A DNA stretch of 9,253 nt from a virus (IMGVR_UViG_2713896781_000016), one strand, 5' to 3'. Numbered from the stretch's first letter, positions 1,377-7,752 are shown. Numbers and translations are program-made. Notes: a model not told the origin generated them from the letters alone.

Positions 1377-1495
1377 TCATAGTCCTCTTTCAGAGATGAA
1401 CATTCAAACAGCATTTTCAGTATGGTAAAGCGCGGGTGCGTTGAGGATGCCTGACACATCAGAGGTGGCGGGAGATTACTCCCCCGCCTGGTCTC

Positions 1496-1688
1496 TTACT
1501 TCTCAGATTCGTAGTCTACGAAGACAGCGACCTCCGTCTGACCGGTTCGGATTCGCACCTCGCAGAGGTCTTTCCTCGTTACCAGTGCCGTCACTATGAC
1601 GGTTAAACAGATGACGATCNNNNNNNNNNNNNNNNNNNNNNNNNNNNNNNNNNNNNNNNNNNNNNNNNNTCGCCTTTTGCTGCTTCAT
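1496..1688 (-). CDS. Hok/Gef-family type I toxin (small membrane toxin), coding sequence interrupted by the assembly gap
   Basis: ATG at 1688 gives MKQQKA, then N-run; after the gap, manual translation of 1618..1499 gives IVICLTVIVTALVTRKDLCEVRIRTGQTEVAVFVDYESEK then TAA at 1498-1496. Near-identical to Gef/RelF as recalled. AAGGAG SD 9 nt upstream of ATG. The track ORF 1503..1745 is a wrong-frame artefact of the N-run. Confidence 0.75.
1620..1669. other. Assembly gap (50 N) inside the hok-family gene
   Basis: Run of n characters. Flanks imply only about 11 nt (MLIAL region) are really missing, so the gap length is a placeholder. Confidence 0.95.
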
Positions 1689-1978
1689 AGCCTGCTTCTC
1701 CTTGCCTTTCGGCACGTAAGAGGCTAACCTACATGTGTTCAGCATGGATTGAGCCTCAGATTAATGTTAAGCGTCTTGCAGGACGCGTAATGTTAACTGG
1801 GGCTTTTCTCTATCTGCCGTTGGTGTTCATGCCCGAGGCAGATAGCCTCAAGCACCCGCTGCAATTCTACTTAACTATCCTTTTCCCGCAAACCGTTTTT
1901 ATCCCCAGCGGCAAATCGAATACACCACCAGCGCCACCGCCATCGCAATTCCTACCGTTGTGAATGCTTCAGGCCAGG

Positions 1979-2536
1979 TCATTGATTCACCTCCTGCGGC
2001 GGTTCTGGTAGCGACATCCAGTGGGTTGCTTGCCTAAGATCATTACCCGGACTAACTGCTATACCTCCGCGCCGGAACGTGCCTCCGAGATAGCGTGCGG
2101 AATATATTAATGGCCCAGCCTCGCTATCGATATTCATCGAAATAAGCACGTTCTGGCTCTTTTCAGGCATTCGCTCAGTACAGCTTATCCAGCCATCCAG
2201 AGTTATCGGAGATCTGGTTGACGTTTCCGAGATTTCCCGAAAATTGTTGGTTGACGAATTCTTATTTTCCCGAAAGTTTCCGGCCTGAAGCATGGCGACG
2301 CGGCAGGCGTTCCAGCCATCAGCATATGTTTTAGTTACACCGTCGAGATGGCAGGTAAGCAAATCCATTTCATCAGGCACTACCATTGCTATCGGCTCTG
2401 CTTCCAGTGATGCCAGCGCGATACGAAACACATTAGCCAGCAGGCTGTCTGAAGACTTGTTATCGTGCGCCGAGTCGCTCAGGAAGCCTGTGATGTATGA
2501 TTTAATCTCCGCGCGTTCTCTGGTAATAGTGCTCAT
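1979..2536 (-). CDS. DUF551-like prophage protein (185 aa)
   Basis: C-terminal GWISCTERMPE...ATHWMSLPEPP matches the DUF551 hallmark (W..P.PP) from memory; ATG at 2536, 1 nt after the stop of the upstream small ORF. Confidence 0.65.
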   Translation of the reverse strand: MSTITRERAEIKSYITGFLSDSAHDNKSSDSLLANVFRIALASLEAEPIAMVVPDEMDLLTCHLDGVTKTYADGWNACRVAMLQAGNFRENKNSSTNNFREISETSTRSPITLDGWISCTERMPEKSQNVLISMNIDSEAGPLIYSARYLGGTFRRGGIAVSPGNDLRQATHWMSLPEPPQEVNQ

Positions 2537-4463: not shown

Positions 4464-5210
4464 TTACTTCACAACCCTCTGATTGCTGACATTTGGACGC
4501 CAGCTATCCCAGTTAAACGTCACCCACCGACCACCGTTCATGGTCATGCGGTCCATAATCCTCTCACCAAGAAGCGTGCTCATTGCGGCATGATTCAGGT
4601 TTGTTAACATCCCGACACTGCACAGTGATGCTGTCCGGCGATCAATTATCTGGTGTAATACCACCTGCTCGTTTTTCGTCTCCCGCTGAACGCCTATTTC
4701 ATCCAGGACCAGCAAATCAACACTGCAAAGCTCCTGTAAAAATTTTTCCCCGGATTTGCCGTTGTCGTAGCTGTCATGCAACACGCTCATGACATCAGAC
4801 ACGGTGACGATAATCACGCTGCGCCCCTTCGCCATCAGCCGGTTACCCATCGCCGCTGCAAGGTGATTTTTCCCGGTGCCGGTTTTACCGCTGAACACAA
4901 AATTCGTGCACCCGGTCATCAGTTCGTCAGCTATGGATTTGGCCTGGCTCAGCGCGTATTTTTGCCCGTCGTTCTGCACCTGATAATTCGCAAACGAGCA
5001 TTTGCTGTGCAGAGGCTGGATGCCCGAACGATTCAGGATTTTTTCCACCCGCAACTGGTGATTCTGGCGGTTAATCTCCTCGCTGCGTTTTCGTCCTTCA
5101 ACAAGTTGCCATTCCCGCCACTCCTCCACCGTCCGGTACGGTGGAACCGACGCCTGTGGTGCAAGTCTGCGAATACGTTCAAGAACCCCGGCTGCCGCAA
5201 TGTTTTTCAT
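4464..5210 (-). CDS. DnaC-type replicative helicase loader (AAA+ ATPase)
   Basis: 248 aa; Walker A FVFSGKTGTGKNHLAAA, Walker B LLVLDEIGVQ, and C-terminal GMLTN...LGERIMDRM...WVTFNWDSWR closely parallel E. coli DnaC as recalled. ATG at 5210, 6 nt after the O-like stop. Confidence 0.9.
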   Translation of the reverse strand: MKNIAAAGVLERIRRLAPQASVPPYRTVEEWREWQLVEGRKRSEEINRQNHQLRVEKILNRSGIQPLHSKCSFANYQVQNDGQKYALSQAKSIADELMTGCTNFVFSGKTGTGKNHLAAAMGNRLMAKGRSVIIVTVSDVMSVLHDSYDNGKSGEKFLQELCSVDLLVLDEIGVQRETKNEQVVLHQIIDRRTASLCSVGMLTNLNHAAMSTLLGERIMDRMTMNGGRWVTFNWDSWRPNVSNQRVVK

Positions 5211-7050: not shown

Positions 7051-7114
7051 AGTTTAATAATCAAAACCAAAGAAAGTCAAGAAACAAAACCATCTGTGTT
7101 TTAAAATCAAAACA
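7051..7114. promoter_or_regulatory. OR-like operator region with two GTTT-N8-AAAC palindromes (7051-7068 and 7097-7114) and a possible leaderless PRM (-10 TAAAAT at 7102-7107)
   Basis: aGTTTaataatcaAAACc at 7051-7068 and TGTTTTaaaatcAAAACA at 7097-7114; the latter abuts the repressor ATG at 7114, which has no SD. Confidence 0.5.
7052..7080 (-). promoter_or_regulatory. PR-like promoter for the cro operon (-35 TTGACT at 7080-7075, 17-bp spacer, -10 TAAACT at 7057-7052)
   Basis: Read on the reverse complement; same -10 hexamer as the PL-like promoter; overlapped by an operator-like palindrome at 7051-7068. Confidence 0.5.
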
Positions 7115-7752
7115 TGAACAAGCAAACAATATCTGAACGCATAACCCAACGTATGCATGCGCTAAACTTGAAAGGCAAAGACCTTGTCAATGCCACTGGC
7201 GCATCAAAAGGCTCCGTAAGTCAATGGATGAACGGTGGAGGAGCGCCGTCCTCGCGTTACATAAGTTCACTGGCAAAGATATTGAAAGTAAACGAAAATT
7301 GGCTTCTTAATGGAGGAGAGTTAAATACAGGTGATTCGCTTGATCTATCTTTACCGCCGATAAAAACGGTTCCGCTACTATCACTTCAGCAGGCAGCAAG
7401 CTGGAGTGATTATATGAAAAATTCCTCAATAACCTCTTGTGTGCAGCTTGTCGGAGAAATCCCGGCCAATACCTTTGCTGTTGTTCTAGAGAGTGACAGT
7501 ATGTCGACATCTGGTGGTGGAGTTTCCATCCCAAATGGTTCAACAGTTTTTGTTGATCCCGATCGAATCGTACAACCAGGAAATATTGTCCTTGCCTTAC
7601 CCAAAGGGACCACAACGCCTGTCATTCGCAAACTGGAGATAGAAGGGCCGGATATTCTTTTAGTCCCCACGAATCCTCGCTACCCTTCAATTATGCTGGA
7701 TGATCTATCTTGCATATTGGGAGTATGCTTTAAAATTCAACAAGATATTTAA
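7114..7752 (+). CDS. CI/LexA-like prophage repressor: N-terminal XRE-type HTH plus C-terminal S24 peptidase domain
   Basis: 212 aa; N-terminal ISERITQRMHALNLKGKDLVNATGASKGSVSQWMNG; C-terminal DSM serine motif and VIRKL lysine consistent with an S24 Ser/Lys dyad. Confidence 0.9.
   Translation: MNKQTISERITQRMHALNLKGKDLVNATGASKGSVSQWMNGGGAPSSRYISSLAKILKVNENWLLNGGELNTGDSLDLSLPPIKTVPLLSLQQAASWSDYMKNSSITSCVQLVGEIPANTFAVVLESDSMSTSGGGVSIPNGSTVFVDPDRIVQPGNIVLALPKGTTTPVIRKLEIEGPDILLVPTNPRYPSIMLDDLSCILGVCFKIQQDI

Follow-up and report, generated by a model that had tools for sequence, protein, structure and literature searches.

The Locus Is an Allele of the hokW-mokW-sokW Module

The window analyzed here, a stretch of 9,253 nucleotides from the virus IMGVR_UViG_2713896781_000016, carries what we identify with high confidence as a type I toxin-antitoxin module known from Stx-phage-like lambdoid prophages, namely an allele of hokW-mokW-sokW. 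We are equally sure of the joint reading, in which the locus is a hokW-sokW module and the run of 50 N within it is a gap of nominal length that stands for 13 bases. Every defining hok/sok sequence feature that can be checked in the locus is present. Nothing separates it from the published and annotated hokW-sokW, and the module is therefore already known. Its discovery value is accordingly small, since its annotation is available for phage 933W and its function has been characterized in Sakai prophage 5 (Sp5). The elements of the locus are listed here in the coordinates of the window, first those of the toxin strand from 5' to 3' and then those of the antisense RNA.

1886-1891, minus strand: putative -35 element of the hokW promoter, TTGCGG, read from the sequence 16 nt upstream of the -10 element
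1864-1869, minus strand: -10 element of the hokW promoter, TAGAAT, fixed 6 nt from the conserved GGGTGC mRNA 5' end
1434-1857, minus strand: full-length hokW/mokW mRNA, about 387 nt after replacement of the 50 N by 13 nt; 3' end approximate
1845-1857, minus strand: tac, GGGUGCUUGAGGC, at the mRNA 5' end; pairs with fbi and is conserved in the R1-type locus
1683-1857, minus strand: hok mRNA leader, Rfam 'sok' (RF01794), full model 1-157
1799-1804, minus strand: anti-SD or upstream complementary box, AGCCCC; pairs with the mok Shine-Dalgarno sequence in the minimum-energy fold
1754-1757, minus strand: mokW Shine-Dalgarno sequence, GAGG; precedes the mok AUG by 8 nt and is also conserved in the R1-type locus
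1496-1745, minus strand: mokW reading frame, which extends Hok N-terminally in the same frame; 70 aa after filling of the gap
1698-1703, minus strand: hokW Shine-Dalgarno sequence, AAGGAG, read from the sequence
1496-1688, minus strand: hokW toxin CDS (HOK_GEF), 51 aa once 13 nt replace the N-run; corresponds to WP_000813258.1
1620-1669, no strand: placeholder of 50 N, read as 13 nt, on the minus strand TGTTAATCGCCCT, with the codons M-L-I-A-L
1467-1488, minus strand: 3' stem-loop just after the hok stop, 9-bp stem, GGCGGGGGA GUAA UCUCCCGCC, in the full-length and the truncated folds
1434-1451, minus strand: fbi, GGCAUCCUCAACGCACCC; pairs with tac in the minimum-energy fold and is conserved among relatives
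1702-1707, plus strand: -35 element of the sokW promoter, TTGCCT; TTGCCT or TTGACC in all 57 distinct relatives
1725-1730, plus strand: -10 element of the sokW promoter, TAACCT; TAACCT or TAATCT in nearly all 57 relatives
1737-1807, plus strand: SokW antisense RNA, 71 nt, coordinates transferred from the sokW misc_RNA of 933W

A lambdoid prophage found in O145 and related STEC strains matches the window over its whole length at 99.9% identity. The locus is part of the early-right (nin-like) operon of this prophage, with a DUF551 gene on its upstream side and a YgiW/BOF gene downstream. From the cro-like gene to position 1 every gene is encoded on the minus strand, among them replication genes, DUF1627, DUF4014, DUF551, hok, YgiW/BOF and DUF968; RusA and an antiterminator follow outside the window. 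In the closest complete genome (O145:NM FWSEC0002) there are no stx genes after the tRNA cluster.

The closest described relative is the locus of phage 933W (GenBank AF125520.1). Its record annotates mokW (213 nt, with a stop shared with hokW and thus an in-frame extension), hokW and a plus-strand SokW of 71 nt. The Hok protein and its coding sequence in 933W/Sp5 hokW are identical to those of the window outside the gap, and the in-frame mokW, the sokW promoter, the 71-nt SokW and the downstream YgiW/BOF gene are all arranged as in the window. Within the roughly 387 transcribed nucleotides only 2 substitutions separate the window from 933W: a T for G in the loop of the SokW hairpin and a G for A at the foot of the 3' stem-loop. 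Two further differences were found in the hok promoter region. The carrier prophage, however, differs from 933W, and the gene upstream of the module is DUF551 in the window and L0139 in 933W.

Functional data are available for the Sp5 locus (Takada et al., 2021, PMC8621323). Thirteen of the primers and probes used in that study match the window exactly and one more matches with a single mismatch, whereas the deliberately mutated promoter primer differs from the window at 4 positions. In Sp5, HokW is toxic and sokW expressed from its own promoter neutralizes it; mutation of the sokW -10 element abolishes this protection, which is partly restored by sokW in trans, and northern blots detect both the hokW and the sokW RNA (PMC8621323). 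Upon mitomycin C treatment SokW vanishes and HokW accumulates in the inner membrane in a RecA-dependent manner, and deletion of the locus halves phage release (PMC8621323). Toxicity and neutralization by Sok would hold for the present locus by analogy, being carried over from an Sp5 allele with matching primers and probes.

RefSeq annotates only the Hok CDS on the identical locus of complete genomes (L001, L003 and L098) and omits mokW and SokW. The coordinates given above supply both elements, which are missing from these RefSeq relatives.

The Toxin Gene and the Run of 50 N

The whole window contains a single N-run of exactly 50 N, located at 1620-1669. On its 5' side, the minus-strand sequence ATGAAGCAGCAAAAGGCGA (1688 to 1670) encodes MKQQKA. 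Past the gap, the minus strand continues with G ATC GTC ATC TGT ... GAG AAG TAA and can be read as IVICLTVIVTALVTRKDLCEVRIRTGQTEVAVFVDYESEK followed by a stop codon at 1498-1496. As written, these two halves of hok are out of frame (19 nt plus 50 N make 69 nt), and an ORF listing that runs through the N-run gives the downstream half as DRHLFNRH... The preliminary description of this DNA had placed the N-run inside a toxin gene and held that it breaks the frame. Both statements are correct, as 1620-1669 falls within 1688 to 1496 and the halves do not share a frame. An 80-aa minus-strand ORF that extends through the N-run was rejected as an artefact of the gap, and the plus-strand ORFs at 1596-1727 and 1733-1963 were dismissed as artefacts of the antisense strand.

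The 40 C-terminal amino acids present in the window alone match the Pfam family HOK_GEF (PF01848) with 74 bits and E = 7e-21, far beyond chance and well above the cut-off of 22 bits. The rebuilt Hok of 51 aa reaches 81.1 bits and is identical to the protein annotated as Hok/Gef family protein (WP_000813258.1) in complete genomes. The earlier assignment of this ORF to the Hok/Gef toxins is borne out by the Pfam match. Upstream of the start codon, the hok Shine-Dalgarno sequence AAGGAG is unchanged across 57 relatives and the R1-type locus.

A megablast search with 1380-2000 against complete E. coli genomes returned 505 records of at least 99% identity. In 25 of 25 genomes among the matches listed, the 621 bases of the window correspond to 584 genome bases, and the flanks of the gap are 100% identical to hundreds of complete E. 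coli genomes, complete STEC genomes included. Alignments with strain E2865 and phage 933W match on both flanks up to the N-run, where the 13 bases TGTTAATCGCCCT take the place of the 50 N. Filling in these 13 nt restores the frame, and the resulting 51-aa protein reads MKQQKAMLIALIVICLTV... across the site. An exact-pattern scan of a species-representative genome collection, which sought an N-run or a lesion at the gap site, yielded 12 further loci from E. albertii, E. ruysiae, Shigella, Kluyvera and others; all 12 have 13 nt at the site and none of the 12 has an N-run there. These loci were combined with 80 viral-contig loci and with loci from annotated records. With 13 nt at the gap site, the ORF is intact in 87 of 87 hok loci, which comprise prophage, phage and chromosomal copies, all in fetched DNA.

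Since the relatives uniformly have 13 bases here, 50 is only a nominal length for the N-run. Judged from these alignments, the 50 N are best read as a scaffold gap of nominal length for 13 bases and not as evidence of disruption, and the run should not be annotated as a disrupted toxin gene. We infer the intactness of this particular hokW copy from its relatives, as its own 13 bases are not in the sequence.

Each of the closest genomes has 5-10 hok-like places (megablast). The commonest exact block that other alleles share with the window comprises 65 nt, the 13 missing nt and another 63 nt, 141 nt altogether, and the N-run sits at its centre. The assembly probably broke here because the hok core is an exact repeat in several prophages of one genome. 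Flanks that are symmetric around 13 nt fit an overrun of contigs by k-1 bases into the shared repeat, and would agree with a de Bruijn assembler run at a k of about 64-66: two unique contigs would each have extended k-1 bases into the repeat and would then have been joined by a scaffolder. On this reading, the locus illustrates how a short multi-copy prophage repeat may break a short-read assembly within a gene.

The N-run might instead hide a real lesion, be it a frameshift, a mobile element or, should the 50 N preserve length, about 37 nt of extra sequence, and the present copy would then be a hok pseudogene. This explanation takes its appeal from the difference between the 50 N and the 13 nt of the relatives, which at 37 nt is not a multiple of 3, from the fact that IS elements commonly break short-read contigs, and from the IS3-family element that the closest O145 genomes carry elsewhere in this prophage. 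That element, however, is located in a dnaC-like gene and not in hok. An IS at the gap was rejected, since the contig ends consist of pure hok without IS sequence and bases are missing rather than duplicated. There is neither foreign sequence nor a target-site duplication next to the missing 13 nt. Furthermore, no lesion at the site was found in the 87 hok loci, nor in the 25 complete genomes among the matches listed, and the position of the gap at the centre of an exact multi-copy repeat block by itself explains the contig break. We therefore consider a pseudogene very unlikely.

Still more improbable is a decayed chromosomal hok relic similar to hokD/relF, lacking a working Sok or leader and hence any antisense control. 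Such loci do exist: in L010 and L014 other sequence stands in place of the entire leader, and relB-relE is followed immediately by a nearly identical Hok. In hokD (relF), which lies downstream of relBE, 47 of 51 Hok residues are identical to those of the window and so is the coding DNA around the gap site, but the leader with tac, mok, the Sok promoter and the target has been replaced by relB-relE, whereas the window keeps all these elements. Indeed, the present locus has its leader in full length, together with mok, both promoters, tac, fbi and the 3' stem-loop. It is only 2 nt away from the 933W allele, and the functional Sp5 locus is near-identical, with matching primers and probes. Alignment to known hok/sok and hokD loci, which had been proposed earlier as a check, thus places the window next to hokW-sokW of 933W and apart from hokD, which lacks the leader. 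We retain the reading as a hokW-sokW module with a 13-base gap.

The hok mRNA Leader and mok

The match to the Rfam model RF01794 starts at 1857, the 5' end of the mRNA, and scores 113.5 bits (E = 6.9e-26; gathering score 59), with an insertion of 16 nt in the long hairpin. This identifies the hok leader; the model, though named 'sok', lies on the hok-sense strand. At the place of the hokW -35 element most relatives have TTTGCG/TTGCGG or TTGGCG, and the -10 position is occupied by TAGAAT, TAAGAT, TACAAT or TAAAAT in 44 distinct upstream variants.

The mokW start codon (ATG, 1745-1743) is in frame with hok and is located in the Sok target. In the predicted fold, the mok Shine-Dalgarno sequence is sequestered, with GAGGCU (1757-1752) paired to AGCCCC (1804-1799), the anti-SD element as defined for R1 (PMC9841398). 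Four pairs of this helix (helix 5) have changed on both sides among the relatives. An out-of-frame mok in R1 would have made the in-frame mokW unusual, but mok of the R1-type locus is in frame and does not differ from mokW in this respect.

The SokW Antisense RNA and Its Promoter

The two hexamers of the sokW promoter, TTGCCT and TAACCT, are separated by a spacer of 17 nt, and the -35 element is homologous to TTGCGC of the R1-type locus. The RNA start given in the 933W GenBank record falls 7 nt downstream of the -10 element. In the near-identical Sp5 locus, primer YO-421 was used for the promoter-less mutant, and it alters exactly the TAACCT at 1725-1730 (PMC8621323). The plus-strand promoter proposed in the preliminary description is, by the RNA start and by this primer, the sokW promoter. 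A Sok-like antisense RNA over the toxin leader had been suggested as well, with its identity left open; according to the 933W annotation this partner is SokW at 1737-1807.

The published northern probe for sokW, YO-592, is an exact match to 1737-1766. SokW is predicted to fold into a single-stranded 5' tail of 14 nt, a long hairpin and a terminal UUUU (-30 kcal/mol, z = -5.0). The 5' tail covers the mok start codon, and the mok ATG is complementary to SokW nt 7-9. SokW thus has the features of the cis-encoded antisense RNAs of this family, which are made from a promoter of their own within the hok leader and combine a free 5' tail with a terminator hairpin.

Within the alignment of 57 conserved hok loci there is one hypervariable block, at about 1728-1760 (alignment columns 135-162), and it comprises the Sok 5' tail and the mok start. 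The Sok promoter hexamers and the hok Shine-Dalgarno sequence that flank this block are nearly invariant. Such a pattern in the alignment is consistent with a diversified antisense specificity among the many copies per genome.

RNA Fold, End Pairing and the 3' Region

The minimum-energy fold of the rebuilt full-length mRNA has -162.6 kcal/mol (z = -7.0) and is closed by pairing of the two ends, 5' GGGUGCUUGAGG with 3' CCUCAACGCACCC, which corresponds to the tac/fbi pairing of the family. This helix is 98% paired in 57 distinct relatives and nearly invariant. Compensatory changes in tac/fbi were absent from the 57 relatives, so that its support is conservation and not covariation; because tac and fbi are almost invariant, covariation speaks neither for nor against the helix.

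Across the 57 distinct relatives the full mRNA structure is 95% paired, and 14 pairs have changed on both sides, compared to 8.0 +/- 1.5 in shuffles. The compensatory changes are located in the 5' hairpin, the Sok hairpin, the long-range helix 6, which joins the mok start region with the 3' UTR, and the 3' stem-loop. In the latter (helix 20), 4 of the 9 pairs show compensatory changes. A 3' hairpin had been noted before at about 1455-1485. The stem itself is real, conserved and covarying, but its position has to be corrected to 1467-1488. By analogy to R1, for which the role of the stem-loop has been shown (PMC9841398), it would be the expected protective end of a 3'-trimmed, activatable mRNA. 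In the minimum-energy fold of the 3'-truncated RNA, tac is freed from fbi and pairs with the adjacent downstream segment, not with the anti-SD (ucb). A tac hairpin with the adjacent downstream segment has been described as metastable for R1, where the open form is tac/ucb (PMC9841398).

A consensus promoter and terminator scan of 1380-2000 returned no sites. This is due to its thresholds and not to an absence of the elements: the scan required 9 of 12 matches and both promoters match at 8 of 12, while the stem of the Sok terminator is long and bulged. By terminator scan and alignment, a hairpin with a U-run was not found after fbi in this allele, which leaves the hokW mRNA with a 3' end that is only approximate. 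In most relatives, a hairpin and U-run, AACCCGCTTCGGCGGGTTTTT, follows fbi, and hokW-type alleles (the window, 933W and several viral contigs) are without it (alignment columns 440-470). In the window (1377-1451), fbi directly adjoins the ribosome-binding site of the YgiW/BOF gene (1032-1376).

Comparison With R1 hok/sok and Proposed Mechanism

The hok/sok locus of R1/IncF (parB) is the prototype of the family. Like the window, it contains tac, the mok Shine-Dalgarno sequence, an in-frame mok, hok, the 3' stem-loop and fbi; the order of the elements is the same, and in both loci the Sok promoter overlaps the hok Shine-Dalgarno sequence. The sequence blocks common to the R1-type locus and the window are GCTTGAGGCT-TCTGCCTC, AGCCTCTTAC and GCAAGGAGAAG-AGGC-ATGAA. 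There are also clear differences. Hok of hokW is 44% identical to R1 Hok (PMC8621323), and the SokW hairpin exceeds the Rfam consensus by 16 nt. The R1-type locus has a terminator hairpin after fbi, whereas the window has none. The locus of the window is co-directional within a phage early operon, and that of R1 belongs to a plasmid stability region. The reported roles differ too: help with phage release for hokW and post-segregational killing for R1.

Sequence identity, anatomy of the elements, predicted folds and conservation were all observed at the locus itself. The mechanism outlined here follows that of R1 hok/sok as reviewed in PMC9841398, and for toxicity, antitoxin activity and processing it draws on published work with near-identical or homologous loci. 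Transcription of the minus strand from a weak constitutive promoter (-10 at 1864-1869) would yield a stable hok mRNA of about 387 nt. Pairing of tac with fbi and the anti-SD lock on the mok ribosome-binding site would keep the full-length RNA inert. Slow trimming from the 3' end to the stem-loop at 1467-1488 would then remove fbi and free tac, and the RNA would become translatable. With ribosomes initiating at mok (1745), Hok (1688 to 1496), a membrane toxin of 51 aa, could be translated as well. The unstable SokW of 71 nt would pair with the mok start region via its free 5' tail, thereby blocking translation of mok and, as a consequence, of hok, and the duplex would be marked for RNase III. 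Once the supply of SokW stops, the short-lived antisense RNA would decay and Hok would be made and damage the inner membrane.

What triggers the loss of SokW upon induction has been stated as an open question (PMC8621323). From the gene order and the missing terminator we speculate, tentatively and with considerable doubt, that the module might act as a transcription-coupled induction sensor via read-through from pR. Read-through at induction would meet the sokW promoter head-on and, in addition, provide extra Sok target. Such read-through could be the RecA-dependent trigger that removes SokW and releases HokW.

Neighboring Reading Frames and hok Loci in Other Assemblies

Between the DUF551 gene and the hok promoter the minus strand contains an unannotated ORF of 27 codons, MTWPEAFTTVGIAMAVALVVYSICRWG, at 1899-1982. 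Its ATG overlaps the stop codon of DUF551 (ATGA), and an AGGAGG is located 7 nt upstream. Although 933W differs at 11 nucleotides here, it preserves both the ORF and the hydrophobic core, and a tblastn search found the ORF in 90 phage records, where it is mostly unannotated or listed as 'hypothetical protein'. Judging by this conservation, the ORF probably encodes a real small membrane protein.

E. coli-type hok sequences were also encountered in L007, a contig of 431 nt from Xanthomonas pisi DSM 18956, in which the stretch read is identical to the hokW allele, and in L015, a contig of 22.9 kb from a Veillonella parvula MAG. The presence of hok in these two assemblies is most likely due to contamination or mis-binning rather than to transfer.

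In several of the closest O145 genomes, an IS3-family element of 1.3 kb is inserted in the dnaC-like replication gene (L098, 4427-6486), and the dnaC-like gene of the window is intact (4464-5210). At the position of the repressor, the window has a plus-strand ORF of 212 aa (7114-7752); in the closest genomes RefSeq annotates only a 'LexA family protein' of 113 aa, which covers the C-terminal part of this ORF.
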